IMG/VR virus record: IMGVR_UViG_3300033068_000911
Coordinates: 5,537 to 69,536 of that record
DNA: 64,000 nt
Reading direction: 5' to 3' (one strand)
Origin: a virus
Lineage: Duplodnaviria > Caudoviricetes
Every line of letters begins with the position of its first letter. The stretch's first letter is position 1. This document shows, in pieces, positions 31,118 to 61,812 of this stretch. The notes beneath the pieces are model-generated. The model was not told where the DNA came from, searched no databases, and saw only the letters and a program-made list of their open reading frames with translations. The position numbers and the translations under genes were made by a program.

Positions 31118-31154
31118 AGCCTAGTTGACTAGTAGTAGTGGAGTCAACTAGACT
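31118..31154. promoter_or_regulatory. Overlapping divergent sigma70-type promoters on a palindrome
   Basis: Rightward TTGACT(31125-30)-N18-TAGACT(31149-54); leftward TTGACT(31147-42)-N18-TAGGCT(31123-18); inverted repeat ctagttgact/agtcaactag. Confidence 0.7.
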
Positions 31155-31431: not shown

Positions 31432-33855
31432 GTGCGACGATACCCAACGCTTCCGTTGGGTGGATCGGAGATTATTGCTGTGTCAAATAGTACAGGATTG
31501 CTCTCAATCCCGGAGATTGATCCTGAGCAAGGATTGATTCACGCAGCGCTTAAATATGCGAGCGCCGGATGGTACGTGATTCCCGTTGAGCCTGAATCCA
31601 AGATGCCATCCAAGAGATTCAGGCATTGGGCCGAGGCGTCGAGTCGCGATCCTGAAGAGATTGTCGGATGGTTCACGGGAACGAGCGACCTCCTCGCTAT
31701 CCATGCTGGCCGATCAGGTGCGGTTATCTTCGATGTCGACGATCCGGATATCGTTCCCGAACGGCTTAGCGCCCACTTCACAAAGAACGTTCCGTTTCAA
31801 TCGACGCGTGTTGATAGGCCAGGGCGGGGGCACTACGTCTTCGCCCAGCCGGAAGGTCGAATGCTCGGCAATTCGCGCGGAGAACTGGGCACCTCAAAGT
31901 GGGGTGAAATTCGCGGCACGAATGCGATCATCGTCGTTTCGCCATCTACCCATACGAAAAAGGGTGGTCGGTACCAATGGATGCAGCACGGTCCCGTTCC
32001 TGTTCTGCCCGCCGATCTTGCGAACGCGCTTCCGGACTACACGGGCAAGATCGGCTCAGCGAGCAACAAGGCCGTTCAGGCGTTCCTCGCGGCACACATC
32101 AGCCAATCGGACAAGCTCCTATTGCGAGCCGTCATCGACAAGTTCCGCCTAGAAGCGAAGAATGGGCGTCATGAGGCACTTGTTGCTCACCTAGCGCAAG
32201 CCATGCGCGAGGCGGCGATGGGTTTCTACTCGGCACAGAATGCAGTCGATGAACTGCGCATCGAGTGGAATCGCGTCATGGTTGGTGAGGCCAACTTTCG
32301 AAAGGTGTCCGAGTTTGAATCTGTGCTTTCTTGGGCAGTCGGTGCCGCGCTTGATCTACTGGGCGATCCCGACAAGTTGGCGTCACGGAAGTTAGATATC
32401 GAGAAGCGCATCGCTGACACGAAGATCATGCCGGAACTCGATGCACCCAAGGCGACCGCTTATCAGCCGGAACTTGCATTCGCTCGACCCGAACGGCCCT
32501 CTCGCCCGCCGACGCGTGATGTTGAAGACTATTTCGACAAGGCTGGCCCAAAGGTTGCGCTTATCGCAGAAGATGTGCAGGGGCTCAGCCTTATTCGCGT
32601 AGGCGAGGACAATACGTTTTGGAAGTATCTGGATGGTGGCGTATGGGTGCGAGACAAAGGGATCGTCACATCGCGGTGCGTCACTCTCCTGGCCAACAGG
32701 TTTCGCAATGGCCATGCAGCAGCCGTCAACACGGTGGTGCAGTACAGCGTGCCGCGCTTGAAAGCCGATCCGACCGAAGAGCACATGAATTTTCTTAACG
32801 GGATGCTTGAGTGGCGAACCGGAAAGATGGTGCCACACTCGCCGGACTTTTGCTCAACCGTGCAGTTTCCGCACGAGTGGCAGCCGGACGAGACAGAATG
32901 CCCGATGTTCGATAAGTTTCTAGAATCCGTTCTTGAGCCCGACTACGTGCAGATCGCCTGGGAGATGATCGGGTATCTCATGATGTCAGGGAATCCGCTT
33001 CAGAAGGCATTTATGCTTGTGGGCACTGGGGGGAACGGCAAGGGAACGCTTATCCGCGTAATTGAGGATATTCTGGGCAGGCACAACTGCGCTTCACAAT
33101 CACTCGACGCACTGAAGAATCGGTTTGCACCTGCAACGCTGCACGGGAAGATAGCCAATATCGCCGGAGACATCGACAAGACTTATCAGGAATCGACGGC
33201 ACAGTTCAAGGGCCTCACTGGCGAAGATACTCTATCGGCTGAGTATAAATACGGAGATTCGTTCATGTTCCGTAACTGGGCGGTGCCGGTCTTCTCAGCC
33301 AACGCAATCCCCGGATCGGCTGACACGAGCAAGGGATACTTGCGACGTTGGGTGCCGATCATGTTCAATCGCACGATCAGCGACGATAAGGCGAAACCTG
33401 GCCTCTCGCTCGAACTGAGCCAAGAGGCCCCTGCGATCATGACCAAGGCTGTCGCCGCATTGCGCGTGATGATGGAGCGCAACCACGGGAAAGGTGCGTT
33501 TCACACGTCACAGGAAATTCAGGAAGGCCTGGAGGACTTTGCGAAGAACATTGACCAGATCAGAATGTGGCTGGACTCAGAGAAGGTCGTCGTTCGCGAG
33601 GAAGTCCATCAGTCGCGCACCGATTTGTTTGCTGCCTATAAGGCATGGGCACAAGAGAATCACTACGGAATGCTGAGTTCCGGGGAGTTCTATCGGCGAC
33701 TTTCGGGCATCAACGGTATCCGTGAGGTCAAGATTCGCGGAAACCGGCATTTCAGAGGCGTGGCGATCGTGGAAACGACATTGATCGAACGAGGCAGAAC
33801 GGTGCGCCAGCAAGGCCACCTACACGCAGTAAACGACGATGAAGGTGACATATGA
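31432..33855 (+). CDS. Bifunctional primase-polymerase fused to D5/P4-type SF3 helicase
   Basis: Prim-Pol motifs GWYVIPV, FDVDD, GRGHYVF, EIRG...SPSTH; helicase GTGGNGKGT, AEYKYG, NAIPG, RRWVPIMF. Confidence 0.9.
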   Translation: MRRYPTLPLGGSEIIAVSNSTGLLSIPEIDPEQGLIHAALKYASAGWYVIPVEPESKMPSKRFRHWAEASSRDPEEIVGWFTGTSDLLAIHAGRSGAVIFDVDDPDIVPERLSAHFTKNVPFQSTRVDRPGRGHYVFAQPEGRMLGNSRGELGTSKWGEIRGTNAIIVVSPSTHTKKGGRYQWMQHGPVPVLPADLANALPDYTGKIGSASNKAVQAFLAAHISQSDKLLLRAVIDKFRLEAKNGRHEALVAHLAQAMREAAMGFYSAQNAVDELRIEWNRVMVGEANFRKVSEFESVLSWAVGAALDLLGDPDKLASRKLDIEKRIADTKIMPELDAPKATAYQPELAFARPERPSRPPTRDVEDYFDKAGPKVALIAEDVQGLSLIRVGEDNTFWKYLDGGVWVRDKGIVTSRCVTLLANRFRNGHAAAVNTVVQYSVPRLKADPTEEHMNFLNGMLEWRTGKMVPHSPDFCSTVQFPHEWQPDETECPMFDKFLESVLEPDYVQIAWEMIGYLMMSGNPLQKAFMLVGTGGNGKGTLIRVIEDILGRHNCASQSLDALKNRFAPATLHGKIANIAGDIDKTYQESTAQFKGLTGEDTLSAEYKYGDSFMFRNWAVPVFSANAIPGSADTSKGYLRRWVPIMFNRTISDDKAKPGLSLELSQEAPAIMTKAVAALRVMMERNHGKGAFHTSQEIQEGLEDFAKNIDQIRMWLDSEKVVVREEVHQSRTDLFAAYKAWAQENHYGMLSSGEFYRRLSGINGIREVKIRGNRHFRGVAIVETTLIERGRTVRQQGHLHAVNDDEGDI

Positions 33856-37772: not shown

Positions 37773-37853
37773 GGGGCCGGAATCGGTTTCGACGGTGATC
37801 TAAAACCTCCTGTAGGAAGTCACCGGACCTGGGTTCGATTCCCAGCGGCTCCA
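37773..37853 (+). ncRNA. ssrA: Mini-tmRNA: tRNA-like domain only
   Basis: Acceptor GGGGCCG/CGGCTCC with G3:U70 and discriminator A; stemless D-loop ...GGTTTCGAC; P2 GGTGA/TCACC; GAC then T-arm CTGGG-TTCGATT-CCCAG; only 21 nt where the mRNA-like domain should be. Confidence 0.85.
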
Positions 37854-37854
37854 C

Positions 37855-38043
37855 ATGGCAATCATTATCCACGAATTGCAGGGATTAAGCGACAATCCCG
37901 ATGAGATGTGGTGGCACTGCCGCTGTGGGCAGTATGAGACATATTCGAGAGTTCCGGAAAACCTCGGTGACCTCGCGCCGTGGAAGTTCCTCATCACTCA
38001 GTTCGAGGGACATGTCATCATATCGGAGGAGTCGGGGCGATGA
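37855..38043 (+). CDS. Small CxC-containing protein
   Basis: WWHCRCG; ATG starts 2 nt after the mini-tmRNA discriminator. Confidence 0.45.
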   Translation: MAIIIHELQGLSDNPDEMWWHCRCGQYETYSRVPENLGDLAPWKFLITQFEGHVIISEESGR

Positions 38044-47192: not shown

Positions 47193-47221
47193 ATGCTAGC
47201 ACGTCAATCTTCAGTCGTCAA
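47193..47221 (-). promoter_or_regulatory. Leftward promoter
   Basis: TTGACG-N17-TAGCAT; near-identical to the promoter at 53071..53099. Confidence 0.7.
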
Positions 47222-48159: not shown

Positions 48160-48760
48160 CCCTAAGGGAGCCTATTGTCATCGGGTATGCATTGAGAATT
48201 ATCATGCTTGGCAAATATCCAATCAATCCTCTGTCCGTACTTGCGAAGATGATTTGACGATTCTCCGTGTGAATCATGCTTCCACTGGCGCTAAACGTCA
48301 CGTACCTAGCTTTGAGTTGCCTCATAAGCTCGTTTTGCAATGCGATGTTAGCTTTCAGTGTTCCCATGATGGCAATGTCGCCACCAGTATGCTGCGCCAC
48401 CCTGGCGATAGTATCGACGTCAATGCGTTTCGGAAGGTGGCGTTCGTAGATGTCACCCCATCGGATTGTGAAGATGAGTCCTTGTCCATGAAGGGCATCG
48501 AGCGTGGCGTAGTAATACCGCTCGGGGTCGCTAGTGTTGATTCTCACCCTCTCAAGAATGAGATAGGGATCAGGCGGGAAGACGTGTTCCGCAGCATCAC
48601 CTTCGGTGATCTGCAATCCCTGGCGTCGAATGCCCACGAGAACGGTCGCGAGGATTGTTGCATACGATGGATACATGATGGCTTCTGCGTTGTCCATCTT
48701 CATGAGGGAATCAACGATGGCGGGGCGGTCGATGCTCACTTCTGGCTTCCCTTCCAGCAT
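48113..48760 (-). CDS. Hypothetical protein (lower-GC segment)
   Basis: 215-aa ORF on the operon strand. Confidence 0.5.
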   Translation of the reverse strand: MLEGKPEVSIDRPAIVDSLMKMDNAEAIMYPSYATILATVLVGIRRQGLQITEGDAAEHVFPPDPYLILERVRINTSDPERYYYATLDALHGQGLIFTIRWGDIYERHLPKRIDVDTIARVAQHTGGDIAIMGTLKANIALQNELMRQLKARYVTFSASGSMIHTENRQIIFASTDRGLIGYLPSMIILNAYPMTIGSLRVAGKAKAKVHLLASS

Positions 48761-48975
48761 TCCTTGTGACGATCCTCGTCGTCATCATAGTTGTTACAAT
48801 CGGAGATTCCTGTGTCACTGCCGGATAGCCAGTAGACATGGCAGTGAGTGCAGTAGTATTCGTTATCATCGTTTTCAAGTCGGTCGCCGCATCGACTGCA
48901 ATATGCGGTAAACTCGATATGCGGAACGGGCTCCGATTTACTTTCTCCGTCAGTGAAATCGATCATTTCTACCAT
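48736..48975 (-). CDS. Small Zn-ribbon protein following array 5
   Basis: GAAGGGA SD; CSRCG...CTHC. Confidence 0.55.
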   Translation of the reverse strand: MVEMIDFTDGESKSEPVPHIEFTAYCSRCGDRLENDDNEYYCTHCHVYWLSGSDTGISDCNNYDDDEDRHKECWKGSQK

Positions 48976-48985
48976 GATGTCCCTT

Positions 48986-49051
48986 CGTCCTTGCCTTGCC
49001 CCGCCATGCCGAGCCTCGCCCAGCCAAGCCGAGCCCGGCCTCGTTGCGCGT
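48986..49051 (-). ncRNA. GGC-NN pentamer array 5 (candidate guide RNA)
   Basis: CGCAAC-GA, then GGC + CG,TC,TT,TG,GA,TC,AT,GG,AA,AA, then GGA-CG; strict 5-nt period. Confidence 0.8.
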
Positions 49052-49087
49052 CTCGCGCAGGTGTGAAACTGCGCGAAACTTGGATAC

Positions 49088-49160
49088 TGCCCTTGCCTTG
49101 CCCCGCCATGCCCTGTCATACCATGCCACGCCTTGCCTTGCCGGGCCAAGCCCTGTTGCG
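49088..49160 (-). ncRNA. GGY-NN pentamer array 4 (candidate guide RNA)
   Basis: CGCAAC-AG, then NN = TT,CC,AA,AA,GT,AT,AT(after GGT),AG(after GAC),AT,GG,AA,AA. Confidence 0.8.
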
Positions 49161-49191
49161 CTCCCCGGTGAGGTGTCGAGCCTCACCGGGG

Positions 49192-49246
49192 ATTCCTTGC
49201 CACGCCTTGCCGTGCCCGGCCATGCCGTGCCAGGCCTCGTCAGGTC
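49192..49246 (-). ncRNA. GGC-NN pentamer array 3 (candidate guide RNA)
   Basis: GAC-CT, GAC-GA, then GGC + CT,AC,AT,CG,AC,AA,GT,AA, then GGA-AT. Confidence 0.75.
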
Positions 49247-49722
49247 TGGTGATTGAGAACTTCGGCCATTTCGCGCTCGCGGCGCATCGCTGCCGCGATA
49301 GCCTGCTCTGCCGCTGCTGTCGCCACGATGTGACGACCGAAGCGGTTGCGCACTGCATTCGTTGCGTTCGTCAGATCGGGCGTTTCTAGCGTTTTCCGCG
49401 CACGCTTCATTGCTTTTCGTGAGCGCTCCTGGTGCCGCGTCGCAAGGGTCAAGTGATCTTCCACGCTGATGATCTGGTAGCCAACGAGGCGCACGGTCTC
49501 AGCGGTGCGGTGGTCGTCCTCCTGAAGCTTGCGCCGCGCTCGTTGAGAGAGTTGCTGTAGTCGCTGCAAGCCATCTTTTGAATGGGGCAGCATGAGCAGA
49601 TCGAGAAGTTCGGCATACTTGACAATCTCGCCTTCCGACATATCGCGGAGCCGGTCATAAATCTTCTGCCAGTCTTCGATCTTGTCGCGAACGGGCACCT
49701 CGTGGGTGATGGTGTCGGTCAC
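49240..49722 (-). CDS. Accessory protein of the RAMP operon (wHTH-like N-terminus, helical C-terminus)
   Basis: WQKIYDRLRDMSEGEIVKYAELLDLL...VRLVGYQI; lies between the RAMP-like gene and array 3. Confidence 0.6.
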   Translation of the reverse strand: MTDTITHEVPVRDKIEDWQKIYDRLRDMSEGEIVKYAELLDLLMLPHSKDGLQRLQQLSQRARRKLQEDDHRTAETVRLVGYQIISVEDHLTLATRHQERSRKAMKRARKTLETPDLTNATNAVRNRFGRHIVATAAAEQAIAAAMRREREMAEVLNHQT

Positions 49723-49768
49723 TCTTCCTCTCCAATCAGGTCAGTCATGCTAGGAATTTCTTTCAATG

Positions 49769-50344
49769 CTACGACACCTTTTCCAGGATCACGGAGAAGC
49801 GACCGAAACGCGGACGCCAGTCGCCAAGGCCGACGAATCCAGAACGGCCCACGATGGCCGAGAAGTCATCCCATGAAAGCGTGGAATCATCCAGCATCCC
49901 CGTCGTTTCAATGCTCCACTCGCTGAACTGCGGACGCGTGCGCATCACACGAGAGTTCGTCACGCGGACGGAACTCACGTTGCGGAACTGCGGGTGCTCC
50001 CAAAGTCCATCGGCGTCGCGAGGGCCGTCGTACCGAAGCGGAATCTCCAGGTTGTCGAGAATCAACGACTTAATGACCGCCTGGCCGTGCCGCGTCGCCT
50101 TGCCCGCGTCCTGAATGCAGCGCACGAGGTTCGCGTCCGGAATGTAGGGGCCGTTCTTGTTGATATAGAGACCGGCGACGAACTCAAGCCGCTGGAGCTC
50201 TTCGATATCCTTGTCGGTCTTATTCGTCTTCTTCGACGTGATGGCCTTCATGGCCTTCGTGATCGGGTCACTCGGATCAACCGAGCGATCCGAGTGCATG
50301 AGAAGGGGAGTGATGCCCTCGATGAAAATGTGGAACTTCTGCAT
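49769..50344 (-). CDS. Stand-alone Cas7/RAMP-like RNA-binding protein (Vipr-like), 191 aa
   Basis: N-terminal strand FIEGITPLLMH, GPYIPDANL (compare Cas7 PYIPGSS), RTRPQF..W, C-terminal Gly-rich loop GFVGLGDWRPRFGRF. Confidence 0.8.
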   Translation of the reverse strand: MQKFHIFIEGITPLLMHSDRSVDPSDPITKAMKAITSKKTNKTDKDIEELQRLEFVAGLYINKNGPYIPDANLVRCIQDAGKATRHGQAVIKSLILDNLEIPLRYDGPRDADGLWEHPQFRNVSSVRVTNSRVMRTRPQFSEWSIETTGMLDDSTLSWDDFSAIVGRSGFVGLGDWRPRFGRFSVILEKVS

Positions 50345-50365
50345 TGTCTTGCCTCTCGTCGTTGT

Positions 50366-50428
50366 TTGCCTTGCCTTGCCGTGCCGCGCCTTGCCGTGCC
50401 AAGCCGTGCCGAGCCCCGCCAAGTTGCG
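50366..50428 (-). ncRNA. GGC-NN pentamer array 2 (candidate guide RNA)
   Basis: CGCAAC-TT, then GGC + GG,TC,AC,TT,AC,AA,GC,AC,AA,AA,AA. Confidence 0.8.
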
Positions 50429-50470
50429 TTTCCCAATGAGGAGTCGAACCTCATTTCGACCATCCGAAAA
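50429..50470 (-). other. tRNA-elbow mimic between arrays 1 and 2
   Basis: TTTTCG-GATGGTCGA-AATGAGG-TTCGACT-CCTCATT-GGGAAA: canonical T-loop with a D-loop-like GG bulge. Confidence 0.65.
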
Positions 50471-50524
50471 AACCCTGCCACGCCCTGCCGTGCCATGCCA
50501 GGCCTAGCCTGGCCACGTTTCGCC
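50470..50524 (-). ncRNA. GGY-NN pentamer array 1 (candidate guide RNA)
   Basis: GGC-GA, AAC-GT, then GGC + CA,TA,CT,AT,AC,AG,GT,AG, then GGT-TT. Confidence 0.8.
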
Positions 50525-50535
50525 CTGGTGGTGCT

Positions 50536-50565
50536 AGCTTAGCGCACCGATTCCCGTCGTTTCAA
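50536..50565 (-). promoter_or_regulatory. Promoter of the RAMP/array operon
   Basis: TTGAAA-N18-TAAGCT followed by GCACCAC, as in the other right-arm promoters. Confidence 0.7.
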
Positions 50566-50721
50566 GCGGCACCTGGGGCAATAATCCAAGTCCATCGCTT
50601 TTCCTAGCCAACCTTCGATAGCCGCCTGCGCCCTCACCTCGGCGAGAGTTCCTGGCATGCCTGGATCGAAAATCTCGCCACACTGGTCACAAGTAAGCGT
50701 CCAGATGAGATAGGCGGTCAC
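50539..50721 (-). CDS. Small Zn-finger protein
   Basis: TCDQCG...DYCPRC. Confidence 0.6.
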   Translation of the reverse strand: MTAYLIWTLTCDQCGEIFDPGMPGTLAEVRAQAAIEGWLGKAMDLDYCPRCRLKRRESVR

Positions 50722-51194
50722 TTCTGCAACCTAGGCACGTCGATCGTCAATGGCTGGTCGCTGTAGATGATCGGAAGGTCCGTCTGAACCATCGTGCCAT
50801 CCGCAAGAAAGAAGAACTTGCCAGGATCGCCATCACCATAGGTGTTGTCATCCTGCTTGGAATCGAGAACATGGCACGACTCATAACTAGTGCCCTTGCA
50901 AATGACCTCTTGTTCTGGGCCAATCTGAGAGCCGGACGACGAAACCTTGCCTTTGATGACGTAATACCCGATGACGCTGCCGTAACTGACGATGTAGACG
51001 TAGCCAACGTTCGACGGGTCGTTTTCCCGCTTCGCGAGTTCGCGGAGATTCTTCTGCTCTAGCGACTGGCCCTGGATGACTGCGCTGTTTTTCTGTTCTT
51101 GCTTGCGCTGTTCGTACTCTTCGCCCGTGCATCCGGTCAGGGCCAGGGCGGTGGTTACCGCCAGCGCCGCGATACGTCGATGCGTCGTTTTCAC
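50718..51194 (-). CDS. Lipoprotein
   Basis: Signal peptide with lipobox LTG-C. Confidence 0.75.
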   Translation of the reverse strand: MKTTHRRIAALAVTTALALTGCTGEEYEQRKQEQKNSAVIQGQSLEQKNLRELAKRENDPSNVGYVYIVSYGSVIGYYVIKGKVSSSGSQIGPEQEVICKGTSYESCHVLDSKQDDNTYGDGDPGKFFFLADGTMVQTDLPIIYSDQPLTIDVPRLQK

Positions 51195-53070: not shown

Positions 53071-53099
53071 AGCCTAGCACGTCAATCTTCGAGCGTCAA
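53071..53099 (-). promoter_or_regulatory. Leftward promoter
   Basis: TTGACG-N17-TAGGCT, then GGCACC-ATG. Confidence 0.7.
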
Positions 53100-61731: not shown

Positions 61732-61760
61732 AGCCTAGCACACGCTGCTAGGTGTGTCAA
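61732..61760 (-). promoter_or_regulatory. Leftward promoter with conserved leader
   Basis: TTGACA-N17-TAGGCT, then GCACCACAAGCACAATGACGACGAAAGGGCG. Confidence 0.75.
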
Positions 61761-61762
61761 GT

Positions 61763-61803
61763 GCCCGTGCCGGGAGTCGAACTCGGCATGCGACCATCCG
61801 GGC
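61763..61803 (-). other. tRNA-elbow mimic (second copy)
   Basis: GCCCG-GATGGTCGCA-TGCCGAG-TTCGACT-CCCGGCA-CGGGC. Confidence 0.6.
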
Positions 61804-61812
61804 TGAGTTGTC

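Follow-up and report, generated by a model that had tools for sequence, protein, structure and literature searches.

tRNA-like elements and their degenerate derivatives as candidate processing signals between VIPR guide arrays of actinobacterial phages

We propose that the stem-loops lying between adjacent guide arrays of a phage-encoded VIPR locus are punctuation derived from a family of tRNA-like elements (herein referred to as TLEs), and we consider it somewhat probable that the host enzymes RNase P and RNase Z cut the guides apart at these sites. The evidence supports the view that the separators are members or descendants of a family of genuine mimics of the top half of tRNA, and the tRNA mimicry of the family itself is well supported by covariation and base conservation; cleavage of the separators by RNase P or RNase Z is a step that we infer by analogy with known substrates. 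The value of the finding lies mainly in the TLE family, as the example that first drew attention to it is rather degenerate.

VIPR is an RNA-guided DNA-silencing system and a relative of CRISPR, described in preprints from 2026 (10.64898/2026.04.26.720920). Its guides, the vrRNAs, contain 9–16 GGY/NN pentamer repeats encoded beside the vipr gene and on the vipr strand, and the Vipr protein is a minimal Cas7-like RAMP protein from which the second RRM domain is absent (10.64898/2026.04.26.720920). The locus studied here is a VIPR system, in which a Vipr gene is accompanied by a vap-like gene and by five arrays of GGC-NN pentamers, all on the minus strand of the window (the whole 64-kb stretch of DNA analysed, taken from a virus genome record of 69.5 kb that is estimated to be 96% complete). 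The arrays, of 8–12 GGC-NN pentamers each, run from 50524 to 48993 and flank the two genes, and a period-5 GGY detector run over both strands found no further GGC-NN arrays in the 64 kb. The features of the locus, together with a stand-alone element elsewhere in the window, are as follows:

50472–50524, minus strand: array A1, vrRNA repeat tract of about 10–11 GGC/GGT-NN pentamers (period-5 GGY detector and sequence).
50429–50471, minus strand: HP1, degenerate tRNA-like element (match to covariance model R1, described below, at 50477–50419).
50423–50428, minus strand: CGCAAC, conserved 5′ handle ahead of array A2 (counterpart of the R-CGC that follows TLEs in relatives).
50368–50420, minus strand: array A2, 11 pentamers (GGY detector), leading straight into the vipr ribosome-binding site with no separator.
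49769–50344, minus strand: vipr, 191 aa, Cas7-like RAMP protein (phrog_4652, E = 2.8e-50).
49240–49722, minus strand: vap-like accessory gene, 160 aa (phrog_5926; weak Trans_reg_C match).
49199–49236, minus strand: array A3, at least 8 pentamers, starting 3 nt past the vap stop codon with no separator ahead.
49161–49192, minus strand: HP2, 12-bp (7+5) minihelix (fold z = −5.1; alignment to HP1).
49155–49160, minus strand: CGCAAC handle ahead of array A4 (sequence).
49095–49152, minus strand: array A4, 12 pentamers (GGY detector).
49049–49079, minus strand: HP3, 11-bp hairpin with an 8-nt loop (fold z = −2.8).
49043–49048, minus strand: CGCAAC handle ahead of array A5 (sequence).
48993–49040, minus strand: array A5, 10 pentamers, leading into the ribosome-binding site of the small gene that follows (48966–48736).
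61752–61811, minus strand: stand-alone tRNA-like element (best R1 match in the window), with no array adjoining.

The closest described system is the SUSP1/Felixounavirus type II VIPR (10.64898/2026.04.26.720920, 10.64898/2026.04.26.720927; PDB 36pp), with which the locus in the window shares homology over the full length of Vipr, a small vap-like neighbor, arrays of 8–12 GGY-NN units that flank the genes on the same strand, and a viral context. The Vipr of the window is 32% identical to Felixounavirus Vipr over its full length (E = 6e-38), a profile of its clade matches the PDB entry 36pp (“SUSP1 Vipr protein”), likewise at full length (E = 6e-52), and both H17 and the GDWRPRFGRF G-loop are conserved. 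The 160-aa protein encoded directly downstream of vipr bears a weak likeness to Felixounavirus vap (E = 7e-4) and is possibly a winged-helix DNA binder, as its weak Trans_reg_C match would suggest. The array ends in the window share an A-R/T-GG-R unit, which is also found at the array ends of SUSP1. Across the 160 loci encoding Vipr relatives that served as our family sample, 332 arrays lie on the vipr strand and only 4 on the other. A search of a phage DNA collection returned no nucleotide match to the VIPR locus of the window, and a single-protein scan of viral contigs returned no matches. The 5-nt period had also raised the idea of a TRAP-like protein-binding RNA or sponge, which was dropped in light of the VIPR papers and the Vipr homology.

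Three stem-loops lie between adjacent arrays, at the minus-strand places where an initial sequence-only reading had put them, and their structures differ from one another. HP2, between A3 and A4, is as that reading described it: positions 49192–49181 pair with 49173–49162 in 12 perfect base pairs around the 7-nt loop CTCGACA, with a folding energy of −26 kcal/mol (z = −5.1; 0 of 200 shuffles equal) and a discriminator-like G49161 directly after the stem. HP3, between A4 and A5, also has the 11-bp stem reported for it, formed by 49079–49069 with 49060–49050 and including one G-U pair, with the loop TTTCACAC and then G49049 (z = −2.8; 2 of 200 shuffles equal). After each stem come one purine, the sequence CGCAAC that had been noted at all three junctions and two further bases, whereupon the next array opens with its first GGC; the bases past the discriminator position (A or G) read CGCAAC and contain no CCA.

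HP1 lies between A1 and A2. Its T-stem of 7 bp (AATGAGG/CCTCATT) carries the loop TTCGACT (50448–50442) on a G:C closing pair, and its acceptor-like stem joins T50470–C50466 to G50434–A50430, an outer helix of 5–6 bp (TTTTC/GGGAA) that is weak, with two G-U pairs and a U at position +1. Between the two helices lies the linker or bulge GGATGGTCGA, and a discriminator-like A50429 follows. This 5+7-bp arrangement, which the sequence-only reading had proposed, exists and is the fold in which the covariance model R1 (built from the TLEs of related loci) aligns HP1, at 21.5 bits (E = 0.025 for the whole window) and as the second-best match; it is not the minimum free energy fold, in which GGTCGAA pairs with TTCGACT, and the z-score is only −0.8. 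The linker and loop of HP1 are nearly identical to those of the element at 61.8 kb, and the linker GG is present in both, whereas HP2 and HP3 have no linker.

In alignment HP2 corresponds to HP1 minus its 11-nt linker, with the TGAGG/CCTCA T-stem intact and five of its seven loop bases retained. The suggested geometry of 12 bp capped by a T-loop, as in the acceptor/T-arm helix, fits HP2 in its 7+5-bp stem and 7-nt loop but is broken by a C in place of T54, and it does not extend to HP3, whose loop is 8 nt long and has no T-loop likeness. HP3 has in common with the other separators only its position and the G-CGCAAC junction. Stacked base pairs number 12 in HP2, 12–13 in HP1 (with G-U pairs) and 11 in HP3, and most members of the TLE family stack 11 bp rather than 12. 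In the whole-window search R1 recognized HP1 but neither HP2 nor HP3. The earlier view of the separators as tRNA mimics is partly supported. The best explanation of these comparisons is probably that HP1 is a weak full TLE, HP2 a linker-less minihelix derivative and HP3 a further degenerate hairpin retained at the same position. Nor are all of the arrays set apart: separators occur between A1 and A2, A3 and A4, and A4 and A5, following three of the five arrays, whereas A2 and A5 run into ribosome-binding sites with unstructured flanks and A3 has none ahead of it.

The TLE family was defined from the 160 related loci, in which a canonical T-arm is present in many inter-array spacers. Of 136 spacers, 29 contain a strict T-arm pattern, a density of 3.8 per kb against a background of 0.05 per kb, and 46 T-arm-bearing elements align as one family with a constant order of parts: an acceptor-like stem of 5 bp, about 11 nt of linker containing GG, a T-stem of 6 bp with the loop TTCRA-NN, the 3′ strand of the acceptor-like stem, a purine and then CGC. 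The whole element measures about 45 nt and has neither a D stem nor an anticodon arm. RNAalifold reports compensatory changes in 10 of the 11 base pairs, comprising all five of the acceptor and five of the six of the T-stem. Locus scans used a 10-sequence alignment, a wider one of 32 sequences being too divergent. A search with R1 gave 71 matches in the 160 loci, every one of them on the vipr strand. When 73 TLE copies are aligned, 97.9% of cells pair, as against 66.7% in shuffles; their covariation score of 0.778 compares with 0.165 in shuffles (0 of 500 reaching it) and with at most 0.166 in slid controls.

The hallmark bases of tRNA are also kept. G53, T54, C56, R57 and C61 are found in 73/73 copies, T55 in 64/73 and A58 in 67/73; the linker GG is kept in 64/73 and 73/73, G+1 occurs in 66 copies, and the discriminator is a purine in all but one (72/73), followed by CGC and not by CCA. 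The conserved bases are those that define the tRNA elbow, and the TLE is a copy of the tRNA acceptor/T-arm helix and, with a linker GG that may meet the T-loop, of the T-loop/D-loop elbow; it is a mimic and not a tRNA gene. ARAGORN predicts no tRNA gene in the window, and the Rfam tRNA model has no match here (E ≤ 10) or on the TLEs of relatives (E ≤ 1). The Rfam tmRNA model does not match these elements, and neither a ribozyme such as the hammerhead nor any other Rfam family gives a match within 48900–50600 at E ≤ 10.

The distribution of TLEs ties them to VIPR loci and to the guide that follows. Arrays lie on both sides of 46 of the 64 nonredundant TLEs, while some TLEs stand ahead of the first array (in Gordonia phage Trine, directly past the vipr stop codon) and others after the last. 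Counted from the discriminator, the first GGY of the following array lies most often 5 nt away, in a sharp peak (16/46 cases), whereas the gap between the upstream array and the TLE is broad, at 5–50 nt. The same design is present in cultured phages, namely Gordonia phages Trine and MakoManhole, Mycobacterium phage LittleE and the Mycobacterium abscessus prophage prophiBWHA-1; when R1 was run against the whole genomes of these four and of one complete uncultured phage, all 17 matches (17/17) fell within the VIPR locus. An exact pattern of T-arm, RCGC and three GGY units recovers 29 IMG/VR contigs, 20 of which have vipr in the stretch that was fetched. In the Vipr tree the window falls in a well-supported clade of 62 mostly actinobacterial entries, 30 of which have a TLE, in a patchy distribution within the clade; the TLE is common in the actinobacterial Vipr clade. 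Other Vipr clades have a tetraloop hairpin, in some cases accompanied by a promoter, or else tails of the SUSP1 type that contain no T-loop, and two of the related loci carry tetraloop-type terminator hairpins. As in the window, arrays in many relatives are missing a 5′ or 3′ separator. Linker-less minihelices like HP2 were sought in the relatives, and none was convincing.

The best R1 match in the window (38.4 bits, E = 8e-6) is the element at 61811–61752, which lies between two genes and directly upstream of the promoter-like sequence TTGACA-N17-TAGGCT. Promoter-like motifs of this type occur four times on the minus strand, where 0.17 are expected, and those at 53099 and 47221 bracket the VIPR locus; within 48700–50800 on the minus strand there is no promoter-like or terminator-like site. 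With no such site inside the locus and one such motif on either side of it, adjacent arrays are probably co-transcribed and would need to be cut apart. The hammerhead separators of published VIPR types make cutting between guides an already established need (10.64898/2026.04.26.720920).

We hypothesize that the five vrRNA arrays, vipr and vap are embedded in one long minus-strand transcript, in which host RNase P would cut at the 5′ base of the acceptor-like stem and RNase Z, or an equivalent 3′ tRNA-processing activity, would cut past the purine discriminator. The downstream guide would thereby be freed with a fixed 5′ handle (CGC-NN in relatives, CGCAAC-NN in the window), after which Vipr would coat the repeat tract and host exonucleases would trim the remainder. 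RNase P and RNase Z act on acceptor/T-arm minihelices and on tRNA-like elements, mascRNA among them, and an encoded CCA blocks RNase Z; it is from such established knowledge of minihelix and tRNA-like substrates that we infer the cutting enzyme, the position of the cut and whether HP2 and HP3 would still be cut. The final step, combining exonucleases with a Vipr footprint, is needed because A2, A3, A5 and their equivalents in relatives are without one or both separators. Given that arrays without separators are found in the window and in many relatives, other routes to guide ends must also exist. The further conclusion drawn by the sequence-only reading, that guides mature without Cas6, holds trivially for every VIPR system.

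The main rival to this hypothesis is that the stem-loops are structural 3′ tails or insulators like those of SUSP1, which would cap the Vipr filament or bring it to a stop and shield the 3′ end, with no part for tRNA-processing enzymes, a role that we consider rather unlikely. Published vrRNAs consist of a repeat tract and an invariable structured 3′ tail by which the filament is capped (10.64898/2026.04.26.720920; 10.64898/2026.04.26.720927), and in the SUSP1 system the tail is kept on the guide (10.64898/2026.04.26.720927); each hairpin in the window comes after an array, and the tails of the family are very diverse (pseudoknot-like structures, tetraloop hairpins and TLEs), such that any stable structure might serve. 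However, no tail follows A2 or A5 or, in at least 12 relatives, the array immediately upstream of vipr, while TLEs also occur ahead of first arrays and, at 61.8 kb, without any adjoining array. The spacing points the same way, being variable on the upstream side and fixed on the downstream side, and a mere cap would leave the strict conservation of tRNA-specific bases unexplained.

Cutting of the hairpin bases by Vipr or Vap in the manner of Cas6, leaving the 8-nt CGCAAC-NN handle, would be in keeping with Vipr being a RAMP protein like Cas6 and with the resemblance of a hairpin plus an 8-nt handle to CRISPR repeat processing. We find it improbable nonetheless: Vipr is minimal and Cas7-like, with the second RRM domain absent, other VIPR types need ribozymes between their guides (10.64898/2026.04.26.720920), and a dedicated nuclease would not require the hallmarks of tRNA. 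We give the least credence of all to the idea that the hairpins are factor-independent terminators of an actinobacterial type that lacks a U-tract, with each array forming its own transcription unit. The stems of HP2 and HP3 are GC-rich and 11–12 bp long, and in some related loci the arrays are indeed separated by a terminator hairpin with a TTGAC...TAGAGT promoter after it; yet the region in the window has no U-tract and no promoter-like site, the 9 nt from the stem to the next array leave no room for a promoter, and A4, A5 and the genes beyond them would fall silent if transcription terminated there. We thus favor processing by RNase P and RNase Z at TLE-derived separators over these alternatives.

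Structured tails, staggered arrays and hammerhead separators have been described for VIPR arrays (10.64898/2026.04.26.720920), and the elements reported here differ from each in defined ways. The SUSP1-type tail is an AT-rich hairpin or pseudoknot followed by a second, terminator-like hairpin and contains no T-loop motif, whereas the separators of the window are tRNA-like or derived from such elements, lie only between adjacent arrays and show tight coupling with the 5′ end of the guide that follows. In VIPR types I and V, hammerhead ribozymes are interspersed in the vrRNA arrays (10.64898/2026.04.26.720920, fig. S19); these resemble the present separators in placing a structured RNA, with an inferred cutting job, between adjacent guides, but they are self-cleaving, while the separators of the window would rely on host enzymes. 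The tRNA-like domain of tmRNA has an acceptor stem, a stemless GG analogue of the D-loop and a T-arm, as does the TLE, which differs in having no mRNA-like domain, no encoded CCA and an acceptor of only 5 bp.

Recruitment of RNase P and RNase Z by a tRNA or a tRNA mimic that sits between functional RNAs, and the release of those RNAs, are known from mascRNA, which lies at the 3′ end of MALAT1, and also from mitochondrial tRNA punctuation, plant t-elements, the tRNA-miRNA units of the herpesvirus MHV68 and engineered polycistronic tRNA-gRNA arrays. Such processing signals keep the acceptor/T-arm helix and the elbow, as the TLE does; the TLE is smaller (about 45 nt), bacterial-viral in setting and part of a natural guide-RNA array, and its cleavage is putative. 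The two VIPR preprints (10.64898/2026.04.26.720920, 10.64898/2026.04.26.720927) and a further paper that mentions VIPR arrays describe no tRNA-like separators, the words tRNA and RNase do not appear in 10.64898/2026.04.26.720920, and our searches found no literature combining vrRNA with tRNA-like elements. What is added here is the TLE family model with its covariation statistics, the spacing rule, the examples in cultured phages and the stand-alone copy.

The production of VIPR guides is largely unaddressed in the VIPR papers cited above, and a tRNA-mimic separator, if confirmed, would constitute a third route by which guides mature without Cas6, one that depends on the host. Such a separator would tie the production of phage guides to essential host enzymes and provide a natural counterpart of engineered tRNA-gRNA arrays, and engineered systems would gain from it a small part, ready for use, with which to multiplex VIPR guides. 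We put at about even the chances of a broader proposition, namely that a large clade of actinobacterial phages, including Trine, MakoManhole and LittleE, matures its VIPR guides by hijacking host RNase P and RNase Z through mimics of the tRNA top half, about 45 nt long and set between the guides, that the module may serve elsewhere as a general RNA-processing mark (as at 61.8 kb) and that the excised mini-tRNAs may themselves be functional. A literature search found no useful RNA-seq of LittleE or prophiBWHA-1 and no published RNA-end data; direct tests are possible in cultured pairs of phage and host, such as Gordonia terrae with Trine and Mycobacterium smegmatis with LittleE.

The tRNA-like elements (TLEs) of VIPR loci fall into two subtypes according to how linker and T-loop are combined: among the 73 copies in our TLE alignment, the loop TTCGAG-N accompanies a GG-CA linker in 40 and the loop TTCGACT a GG-TC linker in 15, mixed combinations are few (Fisher p = 2e-9 over the 73 copies, kinship ignored), and four loci carry both subtypes. 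This pairing could reflect either a tertiary contact or the existence of two paralogous lineages. The linker of HP1, the degenerate TLE between arrays A1 and A2, contains a GGTCGA that is also able to pair with the T-loop, yielding the alternative minimum-free-energy fold.

Structured elements of the window outside the VIPR locus include:

61752-61811, minus strand: stand-alone TLE of the same family, the window's top match (38.4 bits) to R1, the covariance model of the TLE family
37773-37856, plus strand: Rfam tmRNA match of 67 bits, covering model positions 1-374 in just 84 nt

No array adjoins the stand-alone TLE. It is flanked on one side by a gene of 239 aa, which weakly matches RusA as well as a processivity factor, and on the other by a phrog_4265 gene; TTGACA-N17-TAGGCT follows directly downstream of it. 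The TLE may be a site of RNA processing or lie at the 3' end of an mRNA. The plus-strand element is the tRNA-like domain of a tmRNA without the mRNA-like part, and its T-arm scores 15 bits with R1.

The minus strand of the window carries four copies of a promoter-like motif, TTGAC-N16-19-TAG(G/C)(C/A)T, where 0.17 would be expected. Two of the copies bracket the VIPR locus, and the motif probably marks the minus-strand transcription units of the phage:

31118-31147, minus strand: motif copy
47193-47221, minus strand: motif copy
53071-53099, minus strand: motif copy
61732-61760, minus strand: motif copy

Promoter-like sites also occur at the arrays of relatives. Within a sister subclade, the inter-array spacers of four loci (L031, L047, L080 and L028) hold one tetraloop GC hairpin per guide followed by a promoter-like TTGAC...TAGAGT site, and each of these guides appears to be transcribed on its own instead of being cut from a longer array transcript. 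Where a first array has no upstream TLE, a -10-like box (TATATT or TATGGT) stands about 10 nt 5' of the first GGC, which would place the transcription start roughly as near the array as a TLE 3' edge. Such 5' flanks lie at:

L024:2878
L025:2779
L055:2909
L008:2765

Two arrays of the window run into ribosome-binding sites with no separator between:

50345-50372, minus strand: A2 into that of vipr
48967-48995, minus strand: A5 into that of the next gene

The separator is likewise absent from the array immediately 5' of vipr in at least 12 related loci. The 5' UTR of vipr may include the guide just upstream of the gene, in which case Vipr could control its own synthesis.

Arrays also overlap an annotated gene in Gordonia phage Trine (MH271318.1):

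L161 2085-2888 (record 31440-32243): gene 40, annotated "hypothetical protein"

This gene overlaps two vrRNA arrays and three TLEs, and its real start is probably some 300 nt downstream of the annotated one.
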